Shown in pieces: positions 3,101-45,844 of a stretch of 64,000 nt of DNA. A program made the position numbers and the translations under genes. Location of the stretch: assembly GCA_965243625.1 (NCBI GenBank), contig CBDEVI010000002.1, forward strand, positions 321,396 through 385,395. Direction: 5' to 3'. Every line of letters starts with the position of its first letter. Within the stretch, counting starts at the first letter, position 1. The notes beneath the pieces are model-generated. The model was given only the letters and a program-made list of their open reading frames with translations, made no database searches and was not told where the DNA came from. This DNA comes from Chloroflexota bacterium (GTDB taxonomy: Bacteria > Chloroflexota > UBA11872).

Positions 3101-3242
3101 AGATTTGCTCGTAGACTTGCGCAGCTATGCTCTCAAGCTTGCTCTTATCTAAGTCCAGGTAAAGCGGTCGATTGCGCCACTGACCCTCAAGATAGTGATT
3201 TGCGATCGCGTCGTTCCATGTTTGGTAATCGGTCGCACCCAC
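162..3242 (-). CDS. Large hypothetical protein of 1026 aa. No Walker motifs. One C-x2-C (CKHC) element. Possibly defence- or island-associated.
   Basis: Single uninterrupted ORF in a high-GC context with coding-like composition. No recognisable catalytic motif could be assigned by eye. It sits immediately beside the repeat/IS-rich accessory region. Confidence 0.55.
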   Translation of the reverse strand: MGATDYQTWNDAIANHYLEGQWRNRPLYLDLDKSKLESIAAQVYEQISDPQAAFSEAVGRTLMAADSGYQTFYIHTRSLDRWIRSGQSGPPPFLGLLAFFALVASSMASDEQFSQANYYARLAQALGVAGNKRRKREIQRGFADQSHIFWDALNKLLTDEDGRLGWPTAFAFDRRVHVSIPISQALIREEDRRRLPELFAHYELASGSFPVSEMVGLLDEWIARSSVSVSLRHLWRSPGDVRERIAAVACHELESWDGVVAQNDAQGLRRVPIRLVASVRSHPRPRLDLDLRVRISDSRLNRSLALGAGADGATQAALKLCNNAVTLIDSGLDGWGEFDESDRISMADVLLANMTLRDREGRTELARRARQIVILAFDQGQQWHVEVDRASLAASHTLLVRPRLERNVLEFVRQCARPGWKRFDAQSMIGCPEGWTLIRGVALMAAPDVASDDLQPLIPSASAAIAFAGGLALPRRNTWHAALPPEVSFSVGTEKTICAVLHPIQQEAAEVPLGQFLRSGVVQLREHEVPPGEYRVAVYELDKSARRSPRSIASSTLRLRSAETAGPPDPIKSLRRPIHEDSRWAAISAVDSTAASTGPMVAGGFVELDSKPEQIGPLPPTHLDHADHKDELEEPPIRSSRARSGLAPPCFDGGAHHWDLGMGVANEKRRRRGSCKHCGLVRWHGPTRKPKSARARVVSKASESPISRLPQVVVEAIDNESLVDLDTLLNAISLLNEGTWASFVALARNADDRPWFASEFARTLAGLGHIELKLNRTTLRVERWAVGPPVLVGLPDRDTAVLAGFRSRRLLDRLKASVKALGGSLAREEVHGAPTQVVVRGLRHQERAYVTESATNALGFAVHSVEDAAARLLTGLPPITELLDVLSKWHLPDGDVERFDITTGRWAPTDQSTMPGAYRTDSFPRTYAFVPPTTNSRATARLGTVHLVKHLESLRTGVPLVAYEPKRCELAVRLGAQLPGLYERVAMLCSGSPPRRFNDGTQRYSNVPPGIAAGLWSRLQQSGRSE

Positions 3243-4610
3243 GAACTTCCTCCTCGTCGGAGTTGCCCGAATCTCGAAAGCTCACGACGGATGTTGGAGC
3301 GTTTTGCCCGCCTAGCTGTAGTTCCTACTCACTCTCATTGACTCCGCTAGGGCCACTCTGTTCAAGGAGAGTTCGTTCGACGGCTCCATCTAAGGAGGAC
3401 CTCTTCGCATATCGTAGCGTTCGGCCGACAATCGGCGGCGGCTGGTTGCTGGTCCAACGGATCGCAGCTGAGGACTGGTGGGTGGCCCGAGCGACGGTAA
3501 TAGCGATTTGCCGGCCGCGTGGAATCCTCGACTGCCGGCGGGATTTGCGCCGCTGTCTACCGGTGCACGTGCCGAGCACCATCGACGGAGTCGGGTGACT
3601 GGGAGGCGGGGGCGGCATAGGACTGCCTAGAGATTTGGGCCGCCCTGGTCGGTGATCGACGCGAGTGGGCAGCACCTCGGTTGCCGCCGCAGCGCCGCTT
3701 TCGACCCGCGAGGCGGCAGCATATTCGCGATGCGCGAGATCACCCGCCAAGTCGGTGCAATTCGAGGTCAAGCTATTGGGCGTAGCCCGCCGGCGGCGGC
3801 AATCACCTGAAACCTCGCTTGCCGGCTACTTAGCCCGCGCCGGGAATGGCCATAGGCATCGGCATGTACGGTGCTCTTGATTGCGCCTCGCTCTGGGCTA
3901 GCGCCGAGATTCTTCCTACTAGGGCCCCGGCATGGTGGCGTTCATCGGGCGAGTTGTTGTCTCGTCTGCGGCCCATCACCTCGACGTCAAGAGCCTGCTG
4001 ACCTACGCCATCGCCGGGTCTGCCCAAGGGCCCGATGTGCGACCGATGCGCGTCCGCGACGGTTGCCACAGGGAGCGATGGCTGTGTTGTAGACGGCGAC
4101 TACCAATCCATCCCCGAGGGGTACTAGCCCCCCGCTTCGCCCGCCTCTTGATTCCTCGCTTTACGGACTTGCGCAGCGATCTGGCCCTCTACCTCCGCAA
4201 CTACCACCACGACTGCGCCCGCACCGAGCGCAGGACTCGAAGACCCGCTCGCGTCCAGGAATTGGGTGCCGCCAAAACGCGACCGGAGCGGCCGTCGAGA
4301 CGAGGACGACCCGTCGCAATACCTCGGAAAGAGCACGAGCAAGTGGCACGCGCAGCGCCGGTGGGCGCCCAGCTAGAGGCGTGAGGAGGACTCGAACCGC
4401 CAAGCTTTGACCAAGGCCCGCCGTACGCAGACCAGGTGGGGTGGTTGCGCGGCTTCGCTGTGTGGCCCATGGCGTGGCATGCAGGCAGCCCCCGTCTGGT
4501 CTGAGGATTACGGAAAACTTGCTCGGCATCACGGAATCCAGACGGTTGAATGGACAAGAGAGTCCACTCAGCCCCTCTCGTCGAGCCAGGAGCACTAGGC
4601 AGCGTAGTCG

Positions 4611-5066
4611 ATGCCGGGACACCTCCCTGCTAAGTCCGGCCCCGGGCGCCGACCGCGGGCGGACTGGGAACGACGAGTGGAGCACGCGATTCGCCACCTG
4701 CGGAGCGCGTGGGATCTCCAGGACAACTCTCTGTGCCGACTTGCTTCGGTTCAGGACCGGGCTTCTCGCTCATACCGCGGGCGACCGGGCGCTGACGCGC
4801 TGGCCCTCCGCGATCTAGTTGAGGAGGCGGTCAGGCTGGCCGGCGATCTCCTAGCGCCCCCATACGAGACGTTTCTTCGCCGTTGGGTGGCAACGGGCAA
4901 TATCGCGGCCGTGGCGCGCGAGATGGGCAAGGACCGCTCGCACCTGTCGCGGGACTATCGACCGAGGGTTGTCATGGTCGTCACCGAAGTGTTCATGAGT
5001 CTCACGGGCAATGGTGAGCGCCGTAGGCGGAGGACGCTCCCGAGCCCTGCCCAGCGCGTCCATTAG
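4611..5066 (+). CDS. Small HTH protein, resembling sigma-70 region-4 / ECF-sigma C-terminal domain (copy 1 of a duplicated unit). The true start is probably internal, a GTG near 4680.
   Basis: Motif ...ALALRDLVEEAV...YETFLRRWVATGNIAAVAREMGKDRSHLSR... is a typical HTH. A paralogue at ~88% aa identity lies at 16097-16600 in the same position relative to the structured repeat. Confidence 0.4.
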   Translation: MPGHLPAKSGPGRRPRADWERRVEHAIRHLRSAWDLQDNSLCRLASVQDRASRSYRGRPGADALALRDLVEEAVRLAGDLLAPPYETFLRRWVATGNIAAVAREMGKDRSHLSRDYRPRVVMVVTEVFMSLTGNGERRRRRTLPSPAQRVH

Positions 5067-5307
5067 GGTCCGTCGCCGGCTAGGCATCGTCCCATTGCTC
5101 GGGAGCGGTAGGTCCTGACTGCACCCCAGTAACTCGATCAGCGACTCGACCGCGTCTTAGTGTCCCGCTGCAGAGCGACCCATCAATTGTGTGCGACGCC
5201 TCCAGGATCGATTCCCCTACAGCCGCCGCGCGAGACCTTGGTCGGAGCAGTGCTTTGGCGGTGGAGTAGGCGCCCACCGTAGGAACGTGGCTCGCAAATG
5301 GAAGTAC

Positions 5308-5500
5308 AATTAGGGGCGTATTGGACGCAGATTTCAAAAAAGAGCGACAGCAAGCCTTCAGGGCTAGCGCGACCGGGAAATCGGTGTCGCAAACCTGTTA
5401 GAGCGCGAATCTCGGCGAGTTTCGGACTTTGCGTGCTTCCAAGCTGGAAGCTGCGGATTCGAGTCCCATCCTCTGCTCCTAGTTCGGTCCAATCAGCCGA
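5308..5500 (+). repeat. Structured ~180-nt repeat, copy A (GGGGCGTATTGGACGCAGATTTC...GGATTCGAGTCCC). tRNA-like T-arm. Candidate ncRNA or integration (att) target.
   Basis: Near-identical to copies at 10048-10200 and 16868-17030. Internal hairpins (GCGACCGG/CGGTGTCGC, CTCGgCGAG) and a TTCGAG T-loop-like motif are conserved. Confidence 0.5.
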
Positions 5501-6317
5501 CTCTTGCCTACTCACGACATCTAGCCTTCCTTCCGTTCCTCCAACGCCCGCGCAACGCTTGGTTCACGGTCGCGCAACGCCGTGGTGCACCGGGCGACTT
5601 GCAGTTGTACGCGCAATCAGGGCACCGTCGCGGCATCGCTGGCCAGCACCATGCCCTACTATCTGCCGACGTCACTGGGCAGGGCAGTTTCCCGGAGGAC
5701 GTCCGCCTCAATCGAGAGAACTTGGTGCGGTTCAGGGCGTTCCCGGGCGGCGAACCGATCGTCGGCGAATTCACGCTTGAGGGCATCCTGCGGTGTTAGC
5801 CGCACCTGCAGCATCTACGGTGGCAGGCCAGTCCACTAGGCTTGCGAGCGTCAGGACAATTGAGTCCGTTTCAGAATCGCCATTGACGATTCACGTCGCT
5901 CAGGCGAGACCCGAGCAGGTTGATTGAAACTCCGGCGTCGAGTCGATACGGAACGCAGTGTGGGAGCAGTGTCCAGGGATCGCGTTGTCTGACAGCAGAG
6001 GGCGGTGCCTCGATTCCACTTTCTTATTTGATACCTACGAAATGACCGCTGCACCGGTCCGTGTGGAGAGCCCAGACTGCTGCCAGCTGTCGCGTCAGTT
6101 CGCGTAGTTTGCACTGTCCTGTCGCAGACGTTCATGTTCCCCGCGTCATGCAGTGTTGCCCAATACAAGGTCGCAACCGACCGGGTCGAGATGAGTGGCG
6201 ATGCGTCGGGTGTTGCCGCGACTAGGTTACGGATAGATACGAATCTGGGCCAAGCCTTGCCCGCGACAAGTAGGCTGTGTCACCATTTCGCGATCCAGCG
6301 TATCTTGTTCGACGGGA

Positions 6318-6590
6318 GTGGAGAATCGAATGAAGTTCAAAGAGGTCGTTTCAGCGAGTGACTGGAAGCATCGACCGCAGCGGTCACGGCGCATTAACCC
6401 TGAGATTCGCGAGATTGTCAGCCGCCTGGATAAGACATCGGGTGGGGAATGGGTGGTCATCAGCCTCACGGAGCAGGAGAAGAAACGCCAGCCCACGATT
6501 CGCGGCCGGATCCAATCGGCGGCAGCACAGATGGGCTTCAACGTAAGGTTTGAGATGCGGGCGGGTGACTTGGGCGTACAGAAGGCGTAG
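6318..6590 (+). CDS. Hypothetical small protein (~86 aa from ATG 6330) in a lower-GC patch.
   Basis: GGAG sits 9 nt upstream of ATG at 6330. The local GC drop (5850-6600) suggests foreign origin. No homology recognised. Confidence 0.3.
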   Translation: MENRMKFKEVVSASDWKHRPQRSRRINPEIREIVSRLDKTSGGEWVVISLTEQEKKRQPTIRGRIQSAAAQMGFNVRFEMRAGDLGVQKA

Positions 6591-7101
6591 GCCACCGTCG
6601 GCGGCGATTGGTCGTCGCAGTTAGACACGGTGTCAGGTCAGGGCTCGCACAGCGTTTAGCAGAGCGGATTCGAAACGGTCGAGCTTGCGTAATTCCATCG
6701 GGCTGTGGGTGCTCGGGTGTTTGCCCCTGGGGACTGGCGCACCTTGGGCTCGTGAAGTGGACGTTGCATGCCGGTGTGACCAAGGCGGTAAAGGCGTCGA
6801 GCTGGGGTGCTGCTATTGCTCGAACGGCTTCCGGCCGGGATGCAGGCTCAAGGGCAAGAACTTAGCTGGCGCCGGCGGGGAGCTCTATCGCCGGCGACGG
6901 GTGGACGATCGTTCGGCAGATTGCCGGGTCTTCGGCCAAGATCGCGTCGACCCGCCGAGCGCTACCAATCTCGCCGACTCCCGGAGTGCACTCCTTCTGT
7001 GGGTGAAGCCCTCGTGGCCGTTGCGAATGTGCGGAGTACCGACCACATGGCAGCAGCAATGCGGGAGGGCGAGGCAGGGCCGGCAGAAGCACCGGCTGAC
7101 T

Positions 7102-7305
7102 TTACGGACGATCACCTAGCGTAGTTGCACCACATCCATGAAGCGATGGGTGCCGAGCGCTCGGGGGATTCGGGCCTGGCGCAACGGCCACGAGGTCGGC
7201 AATGTCGTAGGCCGGGTAGTCCGGGGGCAGCCAGTCCCGCAAATCCGGGGGCAGCCGCAGGGTCTGGTTGGGCTCGTAGGGGCGGAAGGTCGTCGGCATG
7301 GGCAA
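7102..7305 (-). pseudogene. IS1182-family (IS5 superfamily) transposase, N-terminal fragment.
   Basis: Translation MPMPTTFRPYEPNQTLRLPPDLRDWLPPDYPAYDIADLV matches the conserved IS1182 N-terminus (Y-x-PNQ-x-LLP...L-x-DWLPED). The ORF terminates after 67 aa and the downstream frames are degenerate. Confidence 0.55.
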
Positions 7306-7410
7306 TCTGCTCAGTCAACGGCTTGACCGATGATCCCCTGTTTCTACGGCGCAGACTCCTAGGTCGGCGAAACAGCGCCGACCGCCTGTCCAAAGGCATA
7401 TGACAGAATT

Positions 7411-7881
7411 CTATTTTGCGCAGAATTCACTAACAGATGCGTAGACAATAACGCCGGTAAACAAGACTGAATAGATAGCTGGTAGCGCCTTCTCGACGTG
7501 GGTCAACTTCCAATATCTGTTGCTCTTGACACCCGTGGATAGCGGGTCCCACTCATCCGTAAAAAACGCAAATTCCAGCTTTGTCTCCAATTCGTGCAGC
7601 ACTCTAAACTTATTGCTGTTAAGCTGCTTATAGGATTGGATGATGACAACCCATGCACCAGACAAGCAAAGCCCGATTATGCCAATCACCAAAAGGACTA
7701 TAAATTCTGACACTTGTCCACTCCCGAACCTAAGTAGTGCGGCGATGAATACTATTAGTCCTGTAAGTAGACCAGCAAATAATCGGTTAGCCGAATCACG
7801 TCGTTGACTCACACGGTCAGCAAGCTCTGAGTGAAGTTTGTAAATCTCTAAGAGTTGATTCTGTGAGGAATCAGCCACCAT
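7411..7881 (-). CDS. Small membrane protein of 156 aa with 2-3 TM helices (SLATT-like pore/effector candidate). Translationally coupled to the upstream TIR-like gene.
   Basis: Hydrophobic segments LFAGLLTGLIVFIAALL, FIVLLVIGIIGLCLSGAWVVII and AIYSVLFTGVIVYASV. The start overlaps the TIR gene stop (TAATG). Low GC (~45%) against a ~68% background. Confidence 0.6.
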   Translation of the reverse strand: MVADSSQNQLLEIYKLHSELADRVSQRRDSANRLFAGLLTGLIVFIAALLRFGSGQVSEFIVLLVIGIIGLCLSGAWVVIIQSYKQLNSNKFRVLHELETKLEFAFFTDEWDPLSTGVKSNRYWKLTHVEKALPAIYSVLFTGVIVYASVSEFCAK

Positions 7882-8294
7882 TAGCTTCCAAGTCTACGAA
7901 TTGCCCCGACAATACTCTCGGTATTCCAGCCCACGATTTCATCGGCCGCTTCCTGTACTCGTTGTGAAATCCGCTTATTCCCCCATGGTCTGATAGCCAA
8001 GATCGGTTTTGGATCACTAAAGTCATTCTGGGCAATATCGATTTCCTTATCGATCCACTTGCTATACGACGCGTATACGCCAGCCAAGACGACGATAACA
8101 TGGCAAGGGCGCATGTGGTTCCATATGGCGGCTTCCAGCTCTTTGTCGGTTCCGCTAGTATGAACGGGGTCATCTTTGGGTACTGAGTAGTCGATATAGC
8201 TAAAATAGTTGCGATTGTCGAGGAGGTTCAGAAGGCCTTCGCGCGCGTCTGAATAGTTCCATGAATGGCTAATGAACAGATTGTAGGTCTTCAT
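7881..8294 (-). CDS. TIR-like domain protein (DUF1863 / ThsB-like), 137 aa.
   Basis: N-terminal MKTYNLFISHSWNYSD... and overall alpha/beta pattern typical of prokaryotic TIR-like DUF1863. Perfect AGGAGG RBS upstream. Low-GC islet. Confidence 0.75.
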   Translation of the reverse strand: MKTYNLFISHSWNYSDAREGLLNLLDNRNYFSYIDYSVPKDDPVHTSGTDKELEAAIWNHMRPCHVIVVLAGVYASYSKWIDKEIDIAQNDFSDPKPILAIRPWGNKRISQRVQEAADEIVGWNTESIVGAIRRLGS

Positions 8295-8412
8295 CCGAAT
8301 ATGCCTCCTGGCGTGGTGAGCGAGACGAGGAGCGCTCGCTTGGTTTGCGAGGTCTAATGTATACCGTACAGAATGCTAACACACCGCTACGCGAAACCGC
8401 CGAACGTCTAGG

Positions 8413-9600
8413 AAACCTTTGAACAACTGGGGCATTTGAGCACCAGGGCGCTTGGGCGGGGGCGGGATCGCTGCCTGGGGCGACGCGCTGGCTCGATCCG
8501 CCATGTCAACCTACCGCGAGGGTGTGATCGTCCCCGCGCGGGGCGCAGTGCGCCCGCTTAGGCCGGTGCGGTCCGTTCCGCCAGCAGCAGATTGGCGAAC
8601 CCGAACAACAGTCACAGCCGGGTGCGGTTCTTGGCCAAGCCCCGATACCGCACCTGCCCGTAGCCGAAGTGCCGCTTCACATACAGGAACGGATGCTCCA
8701 CCTTCGCCCGGATGGAAGCCTTGCGCTGCTCCGCCTCAGCGGCGGCGCTGCCGGGCGGCAAGCGCCGCCGCTTCCCCCGGCGTAACGCCACCTGCTAGTC
8801 GATCGCCCGCCCCCGATGCTCCGGACGCCGGGCGACCCCCTCGTACCCCGCATCGCCCCACACACGCGTCTCGGCGCCGTGCAGGAGCTGTGGCACTTGC
8901 GTGATATCCGCCATGTTGGCCGCCGTCGTCGCCACGCGGTGCACCAGGCCCGTCTCGGCGTCCACTCCGATGTGCGCCTTCATGCCGAAATACCACTGCT
9001 GGCCCTTCTTCACCTGATGCATCTCGGGGTCCCGCGCCTGCGCGCGGTTCTTCGTCGACGCCGGCGCGTCGAGGATCGTCGCGTCCACGATGGTCCCTTC
9101 GCGCAGCCGCAGGCCCTGCGACGCCAAGTGCTGCGTGATCTCCGCCAGCAGCCCCGCGCCCAGGTCGTGCCGTTCCAGCAGGTGCCGAAAATGGAGGATG
9201 GTGGTCTCATCGGGCCGCGGGTCCCGCGCGGTCAGCCCCACAAACCGCTGCACCGCCACGCTGTCGTAGAGTGCGTCTTCCATCGCCGGGTCGCTCAGGT
9301 TGTAGAACAACTGCACGCAGTGAATCCGCAGCATCACGGCCAGCGGGTAGGGCGACCGCCCGCACGCGCCCGCGGGGTAGACCGGGCGGATGCGCGATTC
9401 CAGCCGCGCCCACGGCAGCAGCGATGCCATGCGCTGGAGAAAGCGCTCCCGCCGCGTCTGGCGCGGCTGGCCGTCATACTCCACGTCGGCAAATGAGCGT
9501 TGCGGCAACATCAGGGCCCTCACCGGCTATCGGTCGCCCCTGAGCATAGGCCCTGCCCACGGGCCGCGACCCGCGACTAAATCAGAGGTTTCCTAGGGCC
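8413..9600 (-). mobile_element. IS5-family insertion sequence of ~1.19 kb with ~15-bp terminal inverted repeats. The transposase is inactivated.
   Basis: Inverted-repeat cores CTAGGAAACCTTTGA (8413-8427) and CTAGGAAACCTCTGA (reverse strand, 9582-9596), one mismatch. Internal DDE transposase reading frame. Confidence 0.65.
8480..9523 (-). pseudogene. IS5-family DDE transposase disrupted by in-frame stops.
   Basis: Translation carries ...GRAID*QVALRRGKRRRLP... with TAG in place of the conserved Trp, and ...VEHPFLYVKRHFGYGQVRYRGLAKNRTRL*LLFGFANLL.... These are conserved IS5 C-terminal motifs interrupted by stops. Confidence 0.65.
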
Positions 9601-10047
9601 GATCACGTCGACCGGCAACGCACATAACCGGCACCTGCGCGCCGAGGGCGCCAGACACGACTGCCACCCGCCGCGAGCGCCAGCCCGGATGGACGGCGGG
9701 CTCAGGAGGATGCGCGGGACACCGGTGTGCGGCGGCTCCCGACGCCATCAACCCGAGCCGCTTCACGGGGACACTCCCGGCGAAGCACGGACATGCGGCA
9801 GACCCTTTGGCGATCTGAAGAAACTTGAGTGACAAGCCGTCGCCACAGCGCTCCGGTTCGTCCATCTCTTCCCGCCCCGGAGCGCGGTTGCCGCGGCCGC
9901 GCCTGGTGCGAACGCGGCCGCTTGGCCGCCGGTCCTCCATAGCAGTTGTCTTGAGTGGCCCTCGTGCGAGCCGGGTCACGCAGGCGGTGGAGAGGTCGCT
10001 TGCGGACGCCCTCCTTGGAGAAATGACGCTCGCGCAAAGGGCGTACA

Positions 10048-10200
10048 ATTGGGTGCGTATTGGACGCAGATTTCACAAAAGAGCGAGAGCAAGCCTTCAG
10101 GGCCAGCGCGGCCGGGAAAACGGTGTCGCAAACCTGTTAGAGCGTGAATTTCGGCGAGTTTCGGACTTTGCGTGCTTCCAAGCACGATGTGCCCTGCTGG
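10048..10200 (+). repeat. Structured repeat copy B (5' part only; T-arm absent).
   Basis: ~90% identical to copies A and C over ~150 nt, then diverges at ...TTCCAAGC. Confidence 0.5.
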
Positions 10201-10443
10201 CAGGCCGATCGGTCAGGTAGCAATTAAATCACCAGTCTTCTGATTGCAGTAGCCCTGGAAAGCCCCCGTCTTTGGTCGCTGCGGATTGGCGCTGCTTCGG
10301 CGCAGTGTCAACCGCGGGCCTCCAGCCCTATGCAGTTTGGCACCGGCCTTGGCCACTAGAGTACTCGAACGACTCGGAGTTCCGCTTCACCTAAACGCAG
10401 AATCTCGGCTCCTATCTACCTCCTAGGCTCACGAGAAGAAGAT

Positions 10444-13400
10444 CTAGGCAGTCTTCTGACTAATGCACACCACCTGGGCTCGGGCTAGATCGCGGAACAT
10501 GTCTGCCGTGGAAGGTTGGCAGGTGAAGACTAGAATCTGATTTGTCCTCGATAGCTCTGCGAAAGCCTGGACGGTCATCCGGGATCGCCCTGGGTCAAAG
10601 TTGACGAGCGCCTCGTCGACCACGACCGGAAGGCCTTGAGCGTGTTCACCAAACTCCCGAATCAGGCCGAAGCGTAAAGCAAGATATAGCTGTTCTCTAG
10701 TTCCCCGGCTCAACTGTTGTGGATGCTTGTTCCCGCCCCGGGAGTCGGTCACCACAATCGTTTGCTCTCCAATGGGCGCAAAGAGACGCCTATATCGTTG
10801 ACCGGTGACACTCGAAAAAAACTCCTGAGCGTGACGGATAACGCTTGGCTGGCGTTCCTGTTCGAACTTTTGCCTTGTCCTTTCAAGAAGCGTCTCGGCA
10901 ATAGTGAGCTGGGACCACTCGCGCGCGTACTCTCGCAACTGCTCTAACAGGATGCTACGGCGAATGCGTAGAGCCGATGATTCCTCTTCGTCCGTCAGTT
11001 GCATCAGCGCGTTGTCGATGCCACCCCGTTCTTCTCGCAACGCGTTGCACCGGTCGTCTATTTCCGCTCGCTGCTCTGACAACCGAACAGACTCCCCGCT
11101 GAGCTGACTGGGGTCAGATCCTTCCAGGGACTTTCGAAAGGCTGCCAACCTTTCGAAGGGGCCGCAGAGACGCTCCAAGCTACGTAGGTGCTCGTCCCGC
11201 TGCCGTTCTAGCTGCACTCGTTCGAGGTGCTGTCGCGCCCGGCGGCGAAACTCCTCGGGATCGACCGTGCCGCCGGACACCAATAGAGTTGAGAGTTCCT
11301 GCTCCACCGCCTGCAAACGCTGCTCCTGCCGTTCCACTTGACGCCGGTAATCTTCTGCCGACTCTTTGGCCTGCTCCCGCCGGAAGCGCATTTCTAGCGC
11401 GTCGTCCAGTCTTTGAATGAGCTCGTCGGCCACGGCTGCCAGTTGCCGCTGGTCATCCGGATTTAGCTGCAGGTTGTGCGTCATGGCCAACGATTCCACC
11501 TGATTGCGGAACTCGGCGATGTCGCGCTCAATGGCCGCTACCCGTTCGCGCATCCGGCGGGCTTCGTTCAGTGAGACACGGGTCGCGTCGATGCGGGCCA
11601 GAAAGCTTGTCATCGTGTCTGCCGTCAATGATTCATCCAGGTCGCGCTCCCGCAGCCATTGCTGCCACTCCCGTTTAGCTTCCCGTGCGGAGACCTTGGC
11701 AGCTTCGTATTCCTTGGTCGCGGCTTCGACCAGCAGCTCTTGCGACTTCTCTCGACGGGATGTTTCTTCAACCCGGGCCCTTACACCCGTCCATGTGTTC
11801 AGCGCGGTTCGCGCCGATTCCAGATCCGCTTCTAACAACTCCAGCGCGGCAGTGTTCGGCTGATCTGTGTGGCCCAGAGCTGCTGTCAACTGCATCAGCG
11901 ATTGCAGACGTTTTTCTGCAGCCGCTTCCGCGTCGCTAGTCTGTCGCTCGAGCTCAGTGGTCATGGGTGCCGGAATAGCGATCGGGGACGCCCTTGCCGA
12001 CAAGTAAAGGATGGCCACCGTGGTCAGCAGAGCCAACCCGCTGGCGATGCCCAGGGGTAAAGCTCCTTCACCAAGTAACACCGCGACTACGATTAGGGCG
12101 GCACCGACCAGTCCCAGCAGAACAAGCAAGAGCGAATTGGGACTTTTGGCGGTCTGAGCAGCTAATTCTCGACTGCTCGCCAACGTGTTGAGCTGGCGCA
12201 GCAGGTTCTCGTGGTTCTGTCGCTCCCTCTCATATTCGTCGAGCTGCCCCCTGGCTGCACGCAAGGCATTGCTGCGCTCCGTCAGCGTGGCAGAGTCAAG
12301 CGGAGGGGGCTCTAGGGGCATGTCCTCTCGCGCTTGTTGCACTTCCGCTTGGTGGCTCTGCAGCACTCGCCGCTCTTGGTCAAACACGACTCTCGCTTGT
12401 TGGAAGCGTTCGCGACGCTCAGCTATCTGCTGCTTCAATCGGTCGGCCTGACTTCGGACGACTATTGACGTGTCCAGGGCCACTACGTCTCCTTCGTCCC
12501 ACCCATGGCCGACTTCTGCCAGCCCTTCCGATAGGTCGGCTTCGAGCCTCCGTAGCTCCGACTTCCGCTCCGGCAAGTCTCGGACGGAGCTATCGAAACT
12601 GCTTCGGGCGCGGCGAATACCCTCGACAATCCCCGCATCGTCTAAGAGGGCTTCGTCGTGAATGGCGACTGAGGCGGATTCCTTTGTTTGCTGGAGCTGA
12701 CTGCGCCCTTCTTCGAGGTCCTTCCTTGCTTGCCTAGCCTGGTCCTCGAAGCTTTCGAGGCGCGTAGCGGCGTTTTCCGGAAAATGCTCGAACCGAGGCA
12801 TGCCGCTGAGCCGCGATTCGCAATTGGTTAGCGCGACCCAGCTCTCCCAGCCGTCGAGAAGCTTGTCGATTTCGGACCGGCGAGAGTCTAGCCGCAGGAG
12901 TCTGTCTTTGGCGGATTCAAGTTCCTTGCCTATCTCAAGCCTGCGAACATTGAGTTGCCCGAATCGGTCCGCATTTCCCTCGACCGCCTTCAGTTGGCGG
13001 TCTACGTCCCTCAGTGCGTTCAGCAGCTTCGGCAAAGCCTGAAGGCTGCCCCTGCGCTTATAGATGCTGCCTTTCCGCTCGAGAAGTGACTTCTCAAGTC
13101 GGGCCATTCCGGGAACACCCTGGCCGGCGCTATAGATGCTGGAGCCCTGCAATGCGGCCGCCTCATTAAGTTCATCAAGACTAAAGGTGAAAACGGTCTT
13201 GAAGAACTCGGGTGTGGCGGGGCCTACCAACTGGCGCAATTGAGTCTCGGCGTTAGCCGTGGGACCAGTTGGGGCAGTGACCTGCAAGCCGCCACGCGCA
13301 CCGGAATACCGCTCAACAACGTATGACCCATTGACGTCGTCGGATAGTGTGATCCGGCCTCCGTGGCGCCCCCCAGTGAGTGGTGGGAAGTGGCTGTTGA

Positions 13401-13563
13401 ACCTAGTCGGGAAGCCGAAGAGAATTGCCCGAATGAATGCCAAGAGGGTGCTCTTGCCGGCCTCGTTCGGACCGTAGAGAACTGTGACCGATCCTTGCAT
13501 CGGCCCAATGGTCTTGTGGTGGAAGTGGCCAAATCCATCGACATACAACTCGTGTAGCCTCAT
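10444..13563 (-). CDS. yhaN: SbcC-like AAA ATPase with long coiled coil and an internal pair of TM helices (YhaN / COG4717-like).
   Basis: N-terminal Walker A GPNEAGKST. C-terminal signature/Walker B/D-loop (...VVVDEALVNFD...). Central hydrophobic LLLVLLGLVGAALIVVAVLLG...LALLTTVAILYL. 4-nt overlap with the upstream phosphoesterase gene. Confidence 0.7.
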   Translation of the reverse strand: MRLHELYVDGFGHFHHKTIGPMQGSVTVLYGPNEAGKSTLLAFIRAILFGFPTRFNSHFPPLTGGRHGGRITLSDDVNGSYVVERYSGARGGLQVTAPTGPTANAETQLRQLVGPATPEFFKTVFTFSLDELNEAAALQGSSIYSAGQGVPGMARLEKSLLERKGSIYKRRGSLQALPKLLNALRDVDRQLKAVEGNADRFGQLNVRRLEIGKELESAKDRLLRLDSRRSEIDKLLDGWESWVALTNCESRLSGMPRFEHFPENAATRLESFEDQARQARKDLEEGRSQLQQTKESASVAIHDEALLDDAGIVEGIRRARSSFDSSVRDLPERKSELRRLEADLSEGLAEVGHGWDEGDVVALDTSIVVRSQADRLKQQIAERRERFQQARVVFDQERRVLQSHQAEVQQAREDMPLEPPPLDSATLTERSNALRAARGQLDEYERERQNHENLLRQLNTLASSRELAAQTAKSPNSLLLVLLGLVGAALIVVAVLLGEGALPLGIASGLALLTTVAILYLSARASPIAIPAPMTTELERQTSDAEAAAEKRLQSLMQLTAALGHTDQPNTAALELLEADLESARTALNTWTGVRARVEETSRREKSQELLVEAATKEYEAAKVSAREAKREWQQWLRERDLDESLTADTMTSFLARIDATRVSLNEARRMRERVAAIERDIAEFRNQVESLAMTHNLQLNPDDQRQLAAVADELIQRLDDALEMRFRREQAKESAEDYRRQVERQEQRLQAVEQELSTLLVSGGTVDPEEFRRRARQHLERVQLERQRDEHLRSLERLCGPFERLAAFRKSLEGSDPSQLSGESVRLSEQRAEIDDRCNALREERGGIDNALMQLTDEEESSALRIRRSILLEQLREYAREWSQLTIAETLLERTRQKFEQERQPSVIRHAQEFFSSVTGQRYRRLFAPIGEQTIVVTDSRGGNKHPQQLSRGTREQLYLALRFGLIREFGEHAQGLPVVVDEALVNFDPGRSRMTVQAFAELSRTNQILVFTCQPSTADMFRDLARAQVVCISQKTA

Positions 13564-14870
13564 GCCTCATCCTCGTCGTCCACCAGAGCAGCGAGGCATT
13601 CGTCCTCAGCGGCAGCAAGCAGGTTTCGGAGTTCGCCGTCCGACGGCAATAGTTCCCTCAGGTACGGACTGGCGTTCGACTTGAGATACAACTCCCGCAG
13701 CAACTCCCTTAGCTCGGCTAAGGCGCTAGGGCTCGCCTGCATTTCGCTTGCAAGCCGAACGAGGTCGCCGGTGAAGTCTTCTTGCCGGGTCACCAGTTCT
13801 CGGTCTACCGACGATGCGGTACCTACTTGAATCCGCTCACACCACAGCCAGGGCTCGACACTTGCGTGAAGTTCGTTGAGTTGCTCAATGATGGCGTTCA
13901 CGTTCTCCGGCTGGCGCAGGAATCGGTGCATTGGTCCGCGACCTGTCAGTCTTAGCCGGAGAACAACTGAGTGACCCGCGGCCGCCTGAATCGCGGCATT
14001 GGTCAACTCGTCAATAGCGTCCAATACCTGATGCTCTGTGTCCAACCCAGAAATATCTGATTCCCGGGTGTCCCAACGGACGACATCCGTAGTGCGGAAT
14101 TCCAGTCGTGTCACGCGGTCTTGGTCGATCTCCACAAGGTATACACCGTGCGCACCTCGCTCGTTGGCGTGACGACCCTGAGGGTTCCCGGGGTAGACGA
14201 CAGCTGGATTCGTTTGCCTCAGTACCTGCCGAGTGTGGACGTGGCCCAATGCCCAATAGTCGATGTCGGTGCCTGTGAGGTCGTCAACGGAGCAAGGCGA
14301 GTAGGAATCGTGGTTGGGGTTTCCGCCGACGTTTGCGTGTAGCAAGCCAATGTTGAGGCCGTCGCCCCGCTTGGCCCCGCGAAAGAGCGGCGAAAGGTCT
14401 TGGCGCACCTCTCGCCGAGGGAAGCTGATCCCGTACACCATCGCTCGTTCCGGATCTTCAGAAAATACAGGTGCACCTGTCATCTCCGAGCCGAAGCGAA
14501 CGCACCCCGTCGGTAGTGCCAACTGTGCTTCCCAACCATCTAACGGGTCGTGGTTCCCGTGGCAGATGAAGGAACGGATCCCGGCCGCGTCCAGTTGCCG
14601 CAGACCCGCAACGAATCTCAACTGTGCACGCAGGCTGCGGTCCGCTCCGTCATAGATATCGCCCGCTATCAGCAGCGCGTCGACTTGCTCGCGAATGCAC
14701 AGACCTACGATGTTCTCGTAGGCGGCAAAGGTTGCACGGTGCAGCGTTTCACTGACAAGTTCGGGTGCTTCGCTTCGAAGGCCGAGGAGTGGGCTGTCTA
14801 GATGCAAGTCTGCGGCGTGTACGAAGCGAATCCCTGGCATACCTATCAACTCGAACGCTCCGGCCCGCAC
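13560..14870 (-). CDS. yhaO: SbcD/Mre11-like calcineurin-type metallophosphoesterase (YhaO-like).
   Basis: Motifs FVHAADLHLD, GDIYD, GNHD, GHVH. Operonic with the SbcC-like ATPase. Confidence 0.75.
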   Translation of the reverse strand: MRAGAFELIGMPGIRFVHAADLHLDSPLLGLRSEAPELVSETLHRATFAAYENIVGLCIREQVDALLIAGDIYDGADRSLRAQLRFVAGLRQLDAAGIRSFICHGNHDPLDGWEAQLALPTGCVRFGSEMTGAPVFSEDPERAMVYGISFPRREVRQDLSPLFRGAKRGDGLNIGLLHANVGGNPNHDSYSPCSVDDLTGTDIDYWALGHVHTRQVLRQTNPAVVYPGNPQGRHANERGAHGVYLVEIDQDRVTRLEFRTTDVVRWDTRESDISGLDTEHQVLDAIDELTNAAIQAAAGHSVVLRLRLTGRGPMHRFLRQPENVNAIIEQLNELHASVEPWLWCERIQVGTASSVDRELVTRQEDFTGDLVRLASEMQASPSALAELRELLRELYLKSNASPYLRELLPSDGELRNLLAAAEDECLAALVDDEDEA

Positions 14871-15152
14871 AGATTACCCGGAGAGAGGGCTGCTTGACGG
14901 GCATGAGGCGTGCAGCTTTCCCTCTCGGCTAGAAATACCGTCCAGGTCGTCCCCGTGGGCTGCACGGCCACGTCCAGCTGGGCCTTCGCCACATCGATCC
15001 CCACCGTCACGTTCGCTGGTGCCGCCATTGGTACCCTCCGGCAACGCTAGCGACGCGTCCTGCCTTGCCGATGCGGGCTCGTGCTCACGGCCCGGCAACT
15101 GTTCGCTCTCCGGGCCAGCCTGCGGGCGGGACGACCCTGCTGTGTAGCGGTC

Positions 15153-15374
15153 TCATACGACCAAGATGTGATCGGTCTGTCCCGGCCCGTTCCCTGTGAC
15201 CTTGGACAATCCAAGGCGCCGGGAACATACAAGGTGTGAGACAGGGCTGACGGGTGGGAGGCCGCCCAACGAGCCGTGGGAACGCCGCCGGTTGAAGCAC
15301 CGCAGCCAGCCGACGAGCGCCCGCGTGCGGTGCGCGCTGGTGGGGAAGGTGAAGGCATGCGCCCACGTGCGCAA
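15153..15374 (-). pseudogene. IS3/IS481-family transposase (rve integrase core), C-terminal remnant.
   Basis: ...WLRCFNRRRSHGSLGGLPPVS... matches the conserved Y/F-N-x-x-R-P-H-x-x-L-G-G-x-x-P tail of rve-domain transposases. Upstream frames are degenerate. Confidence 0.45.
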
Positions 15375-16096
15375 CAGGACTAGGACAAAGCGTTCAGACT
15401 CGTCGTAGGTGCGGGGTGTGTAGTGTCGGGTGCGCCGGTGCCGTAGGCCGCGTGCCGTGCAGCGCCGGCACGCAACTCGCCAGGTGCATCGTCAAGAGAT
15501 CACAATGCTGGCAAAGGACCCTTCGTTCGGTGGTCACAGGCTGGATCGTCAGTCTGGGTCCTGTCTGGGCACTTGCGGCGCCTATGGGTGGCTGATCTTG
15601 GGCAAGAGGCCCGGCCACGCTGGATGTTTGACCTCTGGCAAGTTTCTCGGCAGGACGCCGATGGCACACGATCGTGCGCAGAGCCTTCACGAGGCACTCT
15701 GTAGCTGTGGGGCGGTCGTGGTGTGCGCCACAAACTGAGGAGGTCCAGCCCAGGCCGTCACGAGCAACAGTGGATAGAAGAATCGTCCGGCAACACCCGA
15801 GACGCTAGGAGCATTGGCGTCGTGCGGCTTTCAGTTGCGCCCTTGCCTCCGCTCGAAGTGACGGTCCTCCGGTGCCTCCGCCATCCGCCCTGCCTAGGCT
15901 CTCTAGGACCGAAACTCGGGCGTTTTGCTCGGCCTGTCCACTCAGAAGAGATCCAATAGCAATCATCTCGCACGCACTGTCCGCTGACGACGAAGCGTGA
16001 GTAGCGACCGGCGGCCAGCAGAGATGGTCCGATCAGTCAGAGAACTACGGAAACCTTGCTAGCCATCGCCACGGTAGGTTCGTTGAATGGACAAGG

Positions 16097-16600
16097 GTGT
16101 CCAGTCGATCAAACTCTTTCGTCGAAGGGCGCGAACCATTGGCGTCCGCGCTTGGACACACCGCAGGGTCAGGCCCCGGGCGCCGGCCTCGGGCAGACTG
16201 GGAACGACGAGTGGAGCACGCGATTCGCCACCTGCGGAGCGCTTGGGATCTCCAGGACAACTCCCTTTGCCGGATTGCCGCAGTGCAGGAACGCGCATCT
16301 CACGTCTACCGCGGGCGACCGGGCGCTGAAGCGCTGGCCCTCCGCGATCTAGTCGAGGAGGCGGTCAGTCTGGCCCGCGATCTTCTAGCGACCCCATACG
16401 AGACATTTCTTCGCCGTTGGGTGGCGACGGGCAATATCGCGGCCGTGGCGCGCGAGATGGGCAAGGACCGCTCGCACTTGTCGCGGGACTATCGACCCAG
16501 GGTTGTCATGGTGGTGACCGACGTGTTCATGAGTCTCACGGGCAATGGTGACCGCGGGAGCCGCAAGACGCGCCGGAGCCGGGCGCATCGCGTCCGATAG
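16097..16600 (+). CDS. Small HTH protein (copy 2 of the duplicated unit). The true start is probably internal.
   Basis: Paralogue of the 4611-5066 ORF. Sits in the same position upstream of structured repeat copy C. Confidence 0.4.
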   Translation: MSSRSNSFVEGREPLASALGHTAGSGPGRRPRADWERRVEHAIRHLRSAWDLQDNSLCRIAAVQERASHVYRGRPGAEALALRDLVEEAVSLARDLLATPYETFLRRWVATGNIAAVAREMGKDRSHLSRDYRPRVVMVVTDVFMSLTGNGDRGSRKTRRSRAHRVR

Positions 16601-16867
16601 GGTCTGTCGCCGGACTGAAATCGCCCGCGTTGCCCAGAAGCGGTCGGCCCTGACTGCGCCCCGATAACTCGATCAGCGACTCGGCCGCGCCTCAGTGAGC
16701 CGCTGCAGATCGCCCCATGAACTGTGCACGCCGCCTCCGGAGCCATTTCTGCTACAGCCGCAGTGCGAGACCTCGGTTGGAGCAGTGCTTCGGCGGCGGA
16801 GGACGAGTCGCCCCGTAGGCGCCCTCCGTAGGAACGTGGCTCGCGAATAAGAGTACAATTGGGGGCG

Positions 16868-17030
16868 TATTGGACGCAGATTTCACAAAAGAGCGACAGC
16901 AAGCCTTCAGGGCTAGCGCGACCGGGAAATCGGTGTCGCAAACCTGTTAGAGCGCGAATCTCGGCGAGTTTCGGACTTTGCGTGCTTCCAAGCTGGATGT
17001 CGCGGGTTCGAGCCCCGTCCCCCGCTCCTA
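16868..17030 (+). repeat. Structured repeat copy C, the most complete copy. 5' GGGGGCG..., with a 3' tRNA-like T-arm GCGGGTTCGAGCCCCGT followed by CCCCCGCTCC.
   Basis: Sequence identity to copies A and B. T-loop-like TTCGAGC flanked by a 5-bp stem. 5' and 3' ends can pair as an acceptor-like stem (GGGGCG / CGCUCC with G-U). Confidence 0.5.
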
Positions 17031-17338
17031 ACGGAAGTGGATTGGCGAAATCGGCCAGGCTGCGGCGCTTCGCGATGGCTTGGCGGCTCCGTGCCGGGCT
17101 ACTCAGGTGTCTGGGAGTCGCAGTACCTGTTCAGCGCCCGCTGCGACGGCTAATCGCGTGTCCGGTCTGTGCTAAAAGTGGTTTCGGCGACCTCAATTGA
17201 GGTTGCCCTGACGGTGAAACTCCGACGTTTCCGCAGAACACGCCGGCTCGTCTACGCCAACGCGGCGCTGGCGATCTGGTTCGTCCATAGCTGAATCCGC
17301 CTGTTGATCCTGGCGTCCATGATCGCTCTAGCAGGAGG

Positions 17339-18271
17339 GTGCGTACGGTGAAAGGACCTTTGGCAGCCGTCTGGGAGATTCCAGAGCCGCTGTCGGTTCA
17401 TCCCGTCCAGGTGGACGACGACACCGTGATCATGCTGCGACGCCACGGAAACCCAGAGGGCCCCAGGCTCGTGCTGAGCCACGGCAACGGCCTTGCCATT
17501 GACCTCTACTATGCGTTTTGGTCGCTTCTGAGCCGCGATTTCGACTTATTTGTCCACGACTTGCGGAATCACGGTTGGAACAACGTCGGCGACCAGGCGG
17601 ACCACTGCGTCGGCACATTTGCACGAGACCACGACCGCATTCGTGAGGCGATCGGCCGTCGCTATGGCGAGAAACCGACCGTTGGCGTGTTTCACTCCAT
17701 TTCAGCCCTGGCGTGCCTTCATGCGCCGTCGCGGGGAGACGGCTACTCGGCCGTGGTGCTTTTCGCCCCGCCCCTCTGCAACCGTGGCTCCAAGTACCGG
17801 GCGTTCGAATCGCGGGCCAAGGGCACAGCCGACATGCTCAGGCGCAGGACACAATGGTTCCGGTCCAGGGAAGAGCTGGCGGAGCTTCATACCTATTTGC
17901 CCTATTTTCAGCGGGCCGTTCCGGGAGTCTTCGAGCTTGTGGCCAGAACGACCCTCAAGGCGTCGGCGACCGGCCGGGGGTTCGAGCTCCGGTGTCCCGC
18001 CGAGTTCGAGGCGCAGATCTGGGACCATGCCTCGACGTATGCGGTGACCGTCGATTTCGGCGCCATGAGGTGTCCCGTCAAGACCGTAGCCGCAGACCCC
18101 GCGCAGGACCCGAGCGCCCCGTCGTTCGACTACGGGGACGCGGACGTCGACCATGAGTTCATTCCCGACACGACGCACTTCTTGCAACTCGAAAAACCGC
18201 AGGAGTGCGCGGTGGCCGTGCGGCGGTTTCTGACGCAGGTGGGGGGCCTGGAGAATCCATTGTTCCCGTGA
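17339..18271 (+). CDS. Alpha/beta-fold hydrolase.
   Basis: HGNG...D...H arrangement and length typical of alpha/beta hydrolases. Coding-like GC3. Confidence 0.65.
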   Translation: MRTVKGPLAAVWEIPEPLSVHPVQVDDDTVIMLRRHGNPEGPRLVLSHGNGLAIDLYYAFWSLLSRDFDLFVHDLRNHGWNNVGDQADHCVGTFARDHDRIREAIGRRYGEKPTVGVFHSISALACLHAPSRGDGYSAVVLFAPPLCNRGSKYRAFESRAKGTADMLRRRTQWFRSREELAELHTYLPYFQRAVPGVFELVARTTLKASATGRGFELRCPAEFEAQIWDHASTYAVTVDFGAMRCPVKTVAADPAQDPSAPSFDYGDADVDHEFIPDTTHFLQLEKPQECAVAVRRFLTQVGGLENPLFP

Positions 18272-18833
18272 GAGCCACTTCCCGCACTTCGTAGCTACGG
18301 ACGCCCTATGACCGAGGAAGGAACCCCGGAATTGAATTGCCTACTCCGACGCAACCCACAGGTCATTTGGGCGCATGGCCTCAGCAAATGCGGACGTCTC
18401 GCCCGGCAAACGGAAGTACTCGCCGTTCAATTGACGCTAATCGGCGTGCAACCGGACGCGTCAAGCCGGATGAGTTGCCCAGGTGCGTCCGCTGCCGGGC
18501 ACGGGACGACGACCAATCGGCCGTTGCCGCGGCTCGGACGACTGCACCGCGTCGACCGCGAACCGGACCAAGACTTACCGAGAAAGCGCCGACAATCCGG
18601 CAAGGTTGACGTGGTCCGAATGCTCGGCCCCAGTCTCTTGAGGTCACATGCACTCGCCGGCGCGGATATGAGCCTCCTCCGAGGGAACACCTGGCCGAAT
18701 GGAAAGACCGGCTCGGTGGCGCAACAGCCTGCTACGATCGCGCGCCGTGGAGGCGCCGCCCGCGGCGCATGCATCGCGGACAGTTCCCTGAAAGTCGACG
18801 AGTGCTGGCGAACGCTCGGATGAACACCGCAGA

Positions 18834-33814: not shown

Positions 33815-33959
33815 GTTGCCGACGGTACCCCACATTCGCCGCATGCGACGTGCTCGATTCTGGCTGGCCGTTCCGCGGCCCCGCCCTGCCGGCTGCTTGA
33901 CAGGCCTCGATGCCGCCGGAAATACTCCGCGCCAACTGAATACCCAAACACCGTTCGTT

Positions 33960-34125
33960 CAGGTGCCCACCTAGGGAGAATAGGGAAGGCGGTGAGAATC
34001 CGCCGCGGTTGCGCCACTGTAAGCGGGATTTTGGAGCCGGAACCCACTGTCGACCGTCAGATGGGAAGGGCCCGGCAGACCACCTAAGCCCGTAAGCCAG
34101 GAGACCTGCCTGAGCGAGAGGTGAC
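33960..34125 (+). promoter_or_regulatory. Cobalamin (AdoCbl) riboswitch upstream of the B12 transporter/salvage operon.
   Basis: Conserved elements GGGAAGG, GGTGAGAATCC, GCCACTG and B12-box AAGCCAGGAGACCTGCC in the canonical order. Confidence 0.75.
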
Positions 34126-34219
34126 CACTCTCCGCCATAGAGAGGGTCCTCGCGGTCAGGTCGTTGCACCTGGCACACGGAAGCCCAGGTCTCCAGCGGA
34201 GAGCCGCTGGAGGTGAGGC

Positions 34220-45680: not shown

Positions 45681-45844
45681 GGTGCTGCGTCACTCTACGC
45701 TGGCGCCCGGGAAGCGGTTCGCGCTGCCGACGGTCGCTGCCTCGCCGGCAACGACATTTCCCGATGAACCCGTCGCAATTCCGAGCGCCGAGGGAACGAT
45801 TCGCCCGCTGGCGGCGTAATCTCTTCCGAGGGAATCTCAAGATC

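Follow-up and report, generated by a model that had tools for sequence, protein, structure and literature searches.

Three repeat copies and two duplicated blocks

Near the left end of the window analyzed here, a stretch of 64,000 nucleotides from a Chloroflexota bacterium (contig CBDEVI010000002.1), a repeat unit of about 180 nt occurs in three direct copies, which delimit small islets of accessory genes. In a first-pass annotation of this DNA the unit had been described as a structured, tRNA-like repeat, and the layout had been attributed to tandem integrations at a structured-RNA gene. A repeat search located the copies at 5266-5481 (A), 10005-10220 (B) and 16815-17030 (C) and disclosed two more repeat families shared by A and C upstream of the copies. 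On comparison of the block containing copy C with the whole window by BLAST, positions 16036-17030 matched 4499-5481 with 83% identity over 1006 nt, and positions 16820-17000 matched copy B (10007-10190) with 89% identity. Both the three copies and the homologous blocks of about 1 kb, as claimed in the first-pass annotation, are real and not chance matches. Further copies, for which a whole-genome search had been proposed, were sought in the 64-kb window and in species-representative genomes: the window contained three copies in total, all at this locus, while a pattern scan of the GTDB representatives revealed the unit in two Chloroflexota metagenome-assembled genomes, with one copy each.

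Each of the two blocks encodes a small helix-turn-helix (HTH)-like protein of 129 aa. The two proteins, HTH-A and HTH-C, share 86% of their amino acids, confirming the paralogous pair that had been noticed before. The blocks diverge unevenly. Between A and C, identity amounts to 89.5% in the open reading frame (ORF), 77% in the spacer downstream of it, 98.5% in a core of 132 nt (16853-16984 in copy C), which we termed unit5, and 82.6% in the last 46 nt. Copy B has retained unit5 (94.7% identity), and its last segment ends after approximately 16-20 nt, in agreement with the earlier statements that copy A is divergent at its 3′ end and that copy B is truncated before the T-arm. The unit is composed of two parts of different origin: its last ~44 nt are derived from a tRNA gene, and the preceding ~132 nt, unit5, are carried by a mobile element.

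By help of the HTH protein nine further places were fetched from other sequences. The succession of HTH gene, spacer, unit5 and tRNA-Gly half was found in L002, L007 and L008. The tRNA half is degenerate in L005 and L009; in L004 unit5 is missing and the tRNA half abuts the stop codon of the ORF, and in L003 and L010 the HTH gene alone remains. One more locus, L011, was found through a homologue of the hydrolase gene that lies downstream of copy C.

The unit ends in the 3′ half of a tRNA-Gly(UCC) gene

Alignment to an intact tRNA gene of locus L011 revealed that the last 44 nt of copy C correspond to positions 32-75 of tRNA-Gly(UCC). The segment, CTTCCAAGCTGGATGTCGCGGGTTCGAGCCCCGTCCCCCGCTCC, comprises in this order the anticodon loop (UCC), the 3′ strand of the anticodon stem, the variable loop, the T-arm, the 3′ strand of the acceptor stem, the discriminator U and CC. 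The T-arm-like sequence GCGGGTTCGAGCCCCGT noticed in the first-pass annotation is genuine, as it is the T-arm of this tRNA. The 5′ acceptor strand, the D-arm and the 5′ strand of the anticodon stem are missing, and we therefore regard the segment as a gene fragment and not as a tRNA-like fold. In the plasmid and phage collections searched, the sole match was an Arthrobacter locus (88.6% identity over 44 nt), which was called as tRNA-Gly(tcc) by ARAGORN.

The target site was identified by means of L011, which encodes the closest homologue (89% aa identity) of the hydrolase at 17339-18271. Approximately 320 nt upstream of the homologue, L011 harbors an intact tRNA-Gly(tcc) gene (9607-9681, ARAGORN). 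Positions 16985-18532 of the window aligned to L011 9638-11191 with 85% identity. The alignment begins with the anticodon loop, whose first base is tRNA position 32, and further upstream the sequences are unrelated; neither unit5 nor the HTH gene is present upstream of the intact tRNA of L011. We therefore concluded that copy C ends in the native tRNA-Gly(UCC) 3′ half, followed by its native flank. The 5′ half of this gene has been parted from the 3′ half by inserted DNA. Since about 50 nt past the 3′ end of the tRNA are common to all copies and the native gene, the similarity between element and target reaches beyond the tRNA. Fragments of the target at islet ends lie on the same strand as the tRNA gene (5436-5481, 10175-10190, which is truncated, and 16985-17028; all on the + strand). 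Hence, the proposal of an RNA gene as the target was right, but the target is an ordinary tRNA-Gly(UCC) gene and not a structured RNA of about 180 nt; only the last ~44 nt of each unit are target sequence.

Orthologues of the hydrolase with 80-82% aa identity were also seen in two other Chloroflexota genomes (L012 and L013, around 10001-10927), where they have wholly different neighbors and no tRNA. The hydrolase gene thus occurs in variable contexts.

Tests for a structured or tRNA-like RNA

Several analyses addressed the structured and tRNA-like nature ascribed to the unit. An Rfam scan, which had been suggested as a check, gave no family match: with Rfam 15 and gathering thresholds, the only hit in the whole window was a cobalamin riboswitch elsewhere, and at E<=10 the region 16700-17150 yielded one chance miRNA match outside the unit. 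ARAGORN called no tRNA or tmRNA genes in the window. In minimum free energy (MFE) calculations, folding of the unit was no stabler than that of shuffled sequences (z = +0.11 for copy C and -0.30 for copy A), so that the label "structured" was not confirmed. The label "tRNA-like" applies to the last ~44 nt, which are tRNA-derived, but not to the rest of the 180 nt.

The first-pass annotation had also proposed that GGGGGCG at the 5′ end of the unit pairs with CCCCCGC at its 3′ end. These two sequences are complementary in parallel orientation only and cannot form a stem. The sequence that does pair with CCCCCGC is GCGGGGG, with which the intact L011 tRNA begins and which is missing from the unit. 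Instead, the MFE folds of copies A and C pair GGGGCG with CGCUCC (6 bp), but this pairing is absent in the L002/L007 lineage, in which the unit starts with TTGGCTGCG or TTGACTGCG. It could be argued from the genuine T-arm and acceptor 3′ strand, together with the 6-bp pairing, that the unit of about 180 nt is, in its own right, an RNA resembling tRNA or tmRNA, or else a permuted or split tRNA with an acceptor stem formed by its two ends. We regard this explanation as practically untenable given the negative results of ARAGORN and Rfam, the failure of both pairings, and the fact that the true 5′ partner, along with the D-arm and the anticodon-stem strand, resides nowhere but in the intact L011 tRNA. 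What was taken for a structured, tRNA-like repeat is a piece of a tRNA-Gly gene fused to DNA of an element.

A permuted tRNA, in which the 5′ half follows the 3′ half, was considered and rejected, as the downstream match, CGCGACATCCAGCTT in L004, does not represent the 5′ half of a tRNA but an inverted stretch of anticodon stem, variable loop and T-stem. In L004 (6405-6500) and L008 (10780-10866), the beginning of the tRNA half recurs in inverted orientation (AAGCTGGATGTCGCG / CGCGACATCCAGCTT); this inverted copy is perfect over 15 nt in L004, where it lies 66 nt downstream, and comprises 10 nt in L008. It might form a hairpin or be bound by the integrase.

Integrase remnant, HTH genes and cargo of the islets

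Directly downstream of the tRNA half of copy A, part of a tyrosine integrase has persisted, namely a remnant of its N-terminal domain (Table 1). While the remnant alone gave no Pfam match, its counterpart in L004 consists of an arm and an integrase pseudogene and was recognized as Phage_integrase (Pfam, 1e-32). Positions 10843-11208 of L008, directly after the L008 copy, also matched the L004 integrase region in tblastx. At copy A, unit5 is succeeded by the tRNA half, an arm and the integrase stump, as would be expected of a boundary between the right end of one islet and the left end of its neighbor. None of the islets in the window has an integrase gene of its own apart from this N-terminal stump, indicating that the islets are decayed and not autonomous.

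The HTH family comprises 54 relatives, all of them unnamed proteins and almost all from metagenome assemblies. No match was obtained in Pfam, NCBIfam, PHROG or the PDB sequences, and no relative in the JGI metagenomes. The AlphaFold2 model of HTH-C is all-helical (pLDDT 66.5), and its best fold matches were to sigma-70 region 4, all of them non-significant (E>=0.9).

Table 1. Features of the tRNA-Gly(UCC) locus (positions in the window)
Feature	Position	Strand	Evidence
DruF-like (Druantia) gene, cargo of leftmost islet X	162-3242	-	PADLOC DruF2, E=2.6e-172, full length; no Pfam match
HTH-A, 129-aa helical protein, right-end gene of islet X	4677-5066	+	tblastn, 86% to P0013; longest ORF from 4611
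unit5-A, conserved non-coding 132 nt	5304-5435	+	98.5% to unit5-C versus 77% for spacer 5067-5299; no coding signal
Copy A, displaced tRNA-Gly(UCC) 3′ half	5436-5481	+	82.6% to C; aligned to intact L011 tRNA; T-stem mismatches
Tyrosine integrase (int2 type), N-terminal domain remnant, marking the left end of islet Y	5544-5871	+	tblastx to L004 6450-6860, 46% aa, E=5e-14
8xMP membrane protein (7411-7881) and ThsB-type TIR protein (7881-8294), cargo of islet Y	7411-8294	-	Pfam 8xMP 6.7e-35, ThsB_TIR 7.9e-16; PADLOC ThsB 1.4e-9
IS5-family insertion sequence, transposase 8795-9523	8408-9600	-	Pfam DUF772, DDE_Tnp_1; 78-86% nt to copies in L008 and L010
Copy B, unit5-B (10043-10174) and first ~16 nt of tRNA-Gly half, then truncated	10043-10190	+	94.7% over unit5; alignments
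SMC/AAA_27-type ATPase (10444-13563) and metallophosphoesterase (13560-14870), cargo of islet Z	10444-14870	-	Pfam AAA_27 2.5e-19, Metallophos 1.1e-11
IS3/IS481-type transposase remnant	15252-15449	-	Pfam rve_3 3.3e-6 on reverse-frame translation
HTH-C, 129-aa helical protein	16211-16600	+	90.7% to P0013; longest ORF from 16097
unit5-C, conserved non-coding 132 nt	16853-16984	+	Preceded by -10-like TACAAT; starts with GCGT-N5-ACGC
Native tRNA-Gly(UCC) 3′ half ending the array	16985-17028	+	Anticodon loop CTTCCAA to discriminator T plus CC; collinear with L011 tRNA
Native tRNA flank and alpha/beta-hydrolase gene (17339-18271)	17029-18532	+	85% nt to L011 9682-11191; Pfam Abhydrolase_6

The cargo genes differ between the intervals and are unrelated to each other, islet X lying left of copy A, islet Y between A and B, and islet Z between B and C. 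Islet X runs off the start of the window, and the partner genes of its DruF-like gene in a Druantia system would be located beyond this edge. In islet Y, the genes of the ThsB-type TIR protein and of the "8xMP" octameric membrane protein overlap by one base, and they reside in a patch of low GC content (46% at 7501-8000 versus approximately 62% in the genome). These genes may constitute a two-gene defense pair of a TIR protein and a membrane effector. The IS5-family insertion has probably removed the HTH gene of this islet. For the ATPase and phosphoesterase of islet Z, PADLOC gave only weak matches, to mad3 and LmuB.

Elsewhere in the window, the cobalamin riboswitch (33944-34127, + strand; Rfam, 104 bits, E=5e-25) is situated upstream of ORFs that begin at ~34213, and a very long ORF of 2101 aa extends from 45584 to 51889 (+ strand).

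A probable tandem array of decayed islets

Taken together, we consider it likely that at least three decayed integrative islets stand in tandem in the tRNA-Gly(UCC) gene of this Chloroflexota bacterium and that the region covers the right-hand part of their array. Each islet would have been inserted by a tyrosine integrase at tRNA-Gly(UCC). The homology breaks off where the anticodon loop begins on its 5′ side, and the exchange itself would have occurred somewhere within the shared tRNA-half segment. An integrated islet would be composed of a tRNA 3′ half, a short arm, the integrase, the cargo, the helical HTH-like gene, a spacer of ~250 nt and the 132-nt unit5, directly after which the next tRNA 3′ half would begin. 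Copies A, B and C would represent the right ends of the islets X, Y and Z. Copy C would then be followed by the original tRNA 3′ half of the host and its native flank. Behind copy A there would be a tRNA half of greater age and the stump of the islet Y integrase, and copy B would have lost most of its tRNA half. Deletion and insertion of IS elements would have eroded the integrases and one HTH gene. The order of the islet insertions is what we infer from this arrangement, and an intact tRNA-Gly gene would be expected left of the window. Tandem integration had already been put forward in the first-pass annotation. This idea was corroborated in that the copies bound islets at an RNA-gene target, as evidenced by the intact tRNA of L011, the break at the anticodon loop and the integrase remnant after copy A; it had to be modified in that the ~132 nt, like the HTH gene, are part of the inserted elements and not of the target.

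Alternatively, a single block of HTH gene, unit5 and tRNA fragment might have been multiplied by ordinary segmental duplication or homologous recombination, without repeated site-specific integration. The window does not contain an intact integrase gene, its IS elements could drive rearrangements, and the near-identity of the unit5 copies is suggestive of gene conversion. We nevertheless hold this scenario to be very improbable, because the divergence is uneven (ORF 89.5%, spacer 77%, unit5 98.5%, tRNA half 82.6%), which is unlike the outcome of one duplication, and because the integrase stump is positioned exactly after the tRNA half of copy A, as in L004 and L008. Moreover, the intervals carry unrelated cargo, and the break is precisely at the anticodon loop.

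Some observations weigh against a tandem array of integrated islets. By tblastn with three related integrases, no whole integrase was detected in the window, the stump at 5544-5871 being the sole trace. ARAGORN found no tRNA in the 64 kb, and the array continues beyond the left edge, where its left end is out of sight. The comparison with related genomes, proposed earlier to define an empty site, provided an intact tRNA-Gly with the same flank and the break at position 32, but L011 is not a clean empty site, since it contains unit5 itself, between an HTH fragment and a degenerate tRNA half, about 1.5 kb further on and past the hydrolase gene. No consistent 8-mer emerged as an arm-type repeat common to unit5 and the downstream arm, and L004 is devoid of unit5, which may thus be dispensable for recombination. 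Finally, in L002, L004 and L007 the HTH gene is located downstream of a second type of integrase tied to tRNA-Thr(GGU). In L004 this integrase adjoins an intact tRNA-Thr(GGU) gene, and in L002 it adjoins a tRNA-Thr 3′ half that has CCACACCATA repeats at its sides; the tRNA-Thr elements of both loci possess clear CCACACCATA arm repeats. Elements of more than one kind thus harbor the module, which calls for caution with a simple model.

The related loci provided further details. The layout at copy A is also found in L004, along with the Phage_integrase pseudogene. Defense and mobility genes abound in the neighborhoods of the related loci, among them CBASS, AbiEii, GmrSD, HEPN/NTase, PIN/Phd, toxin-antitoxin, Replic_Relax, IS5 and integrase fragments. 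In L002 (8775-9925) a chain of decayed islets precedes the HTH gene. It includes a tRNA-like stretch at ~8775-8850, which was not called by ARAGORN, an integrase-like remnant at ~9260-9440, a tRNA-Thr(GGU) 3′ half that begins with its anticodon loop (~9575-9632), and an N-terminal fragment of the second-type integrase, with CCACACCATA repeats on both sides of the tRNA-Thr half. In L011 (9607-11713) the elements arrayed behind the intact tRNA-Gly are its flank, the hydrolase gene, a truncated ORF, a C-terminal HTH fragment (11184-11293), unit5 (11515-11644) and the degenerate tRNA half (11645-11690). L011 and the window share no synteny beyond the hydrolase segment of 1.5 kb, and this segment looks like the product of an imprecise excision and subsequent re-integration via the tRNA half.

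The conserved block unit5

In every comparison, unit5 was better conserved than the adjacent spacer (98.5 versus 77%, 92 versus 83% and 83 versus 68% identity), but it was not consistently better conserved than the ORF. It opens with the invariant palindrome GCGT-N5-ACGC and is preceded in three lineages by a -10-like TAnnnT hexamer (TACAAT, TATAGT and TAAAAT). A small ORF within unit5 was discarded, as the substitutions lacked three-base periodicity and every frame was stopped in at least one lineage. An origin of part of unit5 from a tRNA D-arm was not favored, since the probability that the shared sequence TAGAGCGC arose by chance is borderline. Regarding terminal inverted repeats, as in a MITE-like unit, we obtained only weak matches of 10-14 nt that differed between the copies. 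No copy of unit5 was found in the JGI metagenomes or in IMG/VR.

We favor the view that unit5 would act as the arm that the element contributes to the attachment site and/or as an operator-promoter region recognized by the HTH protein or the integrase. The near-identity of unit5 in A and C, at 82.6% identity of the tRNA halves, fits element-borne arms that were joined to tRNA halves of different origin.

A second explanation, compatible with the islet model and concerning only the role of unit5, is that the block is the gene of a small RNA or leader encoded by the element. Transcription of the + strand would start from the TACAAT box and, once the element is integrated, continue into the displaced tRNA half; the RNA, perhaps in concert with the HTH protein, would regulate the element, e.g., the expression of the integrase across the joined ends. 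The conservation of unit5 relative to the spacer in every comparison, its non-coding character and the -10-like hexamer in three lineages are in line with this explanation. The covariation check suggested in the first-pass annotation was performed with RNAalifold and turned out ambiguous. The consensus of eight sequences, which represent three lineages and from which the structure itself was derived, exhibited 25 pairs, was 95% paired and contained four double-changed pairs as well as several one-sided changes to G-U. For the same eight sequences the covariation term contributed just -1.09 kcal/mol. The covariation score was above that of 500 out of 500 shuffles, although the tool warns that results of shuffling are not probabilities. 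The MFE z-scores were close to zero, Rfam gave no match, and a promoter and terminator scan of the unit called no promoter, no -35 element and no intrinsic terminator. Besides, elements of the L004 type lack unit5. We rate the small RNA as a rather unlikely, though live, explanation of unit5. The first-pass annotation had offered as its own alternative a novel multicopy ncRNA family accompanied by an HTH regulator. With no Rfam family, no thermodynamic signal and weak covariation from three lineages, this alternative gained no support and retains a small probability.

A more far-reaching idea is that unit5, the tRNA half and the ~50-nt flank form a cis-acting cassette. It would serve as a minimal attachment site through which integrase-less cargo can be moved in trans and, in addition, as the source of a regulatory RNA of the + strand or as an operator under the control of the previously undescribed, sigma-region-4-like HTH protein. 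The islets would then belong to a new family of defense-islet shuttles in Chloroflexota. The hydrolase gene of L011, which is bounded by tRNA halves and by an end made up of HTH fragment and unit5, hints at an attachment-site role of the cassette. We put this idea forward as a speculation of low probability.

Relation to known integrative elements

The arrangement resembles islands collected in the Islander database (Hudson, Lau and Williams 2015, PMC4383910), where an island restores the tRNA gene that it splits, the displaced fragment marks the end of the island, and tandem arrays occur. As in Islander arrays, the tRNA 3′ fragments of the locus are all on the + strand, one per islet, and the native flank is on the right. 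About half of the attachment sites of the database are anticodon-centered (PMC4383910), a class that matches the break at tRNA position 32. Unlike the Islander arrays, the islets described here are only 5-7 kb in size and have lost their integrases, and the intact tRNA gene is outside the window. They also differ by the similarity of the attachment sites, which extends ~50 nt past the tRNA 3′ end, and by islet ends consisting of a conserved HTH gene and a 132-nt non-coding block for which no counterpart is described.

Similarities also exist to the tycheposons of Prochlorococcus (Hackl et al., bioRxiv 10.1101/2020.12.28.424599), in which later arrivals push older elements inward, leaving partial tRNAs and broken integrases. 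Both are small cargo-carrying elements of tyrosine recombinases at tRNA genes, a likeness of layout. Tycheposons, however, belong to another phylum and carry nutrient-uptake cargo, whereas the cargo of the Chloroflexota islets is of defense type, and no replication or packaging genes reside in the window. By its gene content the locus is akin to defense islands at integration hot spots, with DruF, ThsB-TIR and membrane protein, and SMC-like ATPase and phosphoesterase in the window, and CBASS, AbiE, GmrSD and toxin-antitoxin genes at the related loci. This likeness pertains to gene content and not to mechanism, and it is silent on the repeat itself. With tRNA and tmRNA, the last ~44 nt share the part of tRNA-Gly(UCC) from the anticodon loop to the acceptor 3′ strand, whereas the 5′ parts are missing.

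Our analysis removes a false lead, as the supposed tRNA-like structured repeat is a tRNA-Gly fragment plus element DNA. Stacked integration at a tRNA gene is a well-known mode of growth of defense-gene islands and not a new structured RNA, and the locus provides a classic case of it in the poorly studied Chloroflexota of soil. The pair of unit5 and the 129-aa protein recurs at islet ends in several genomes. Should this pair turn out to be a portable cassette for attachment or regulation, islets of the phylum could be delimited and predicted with its help.

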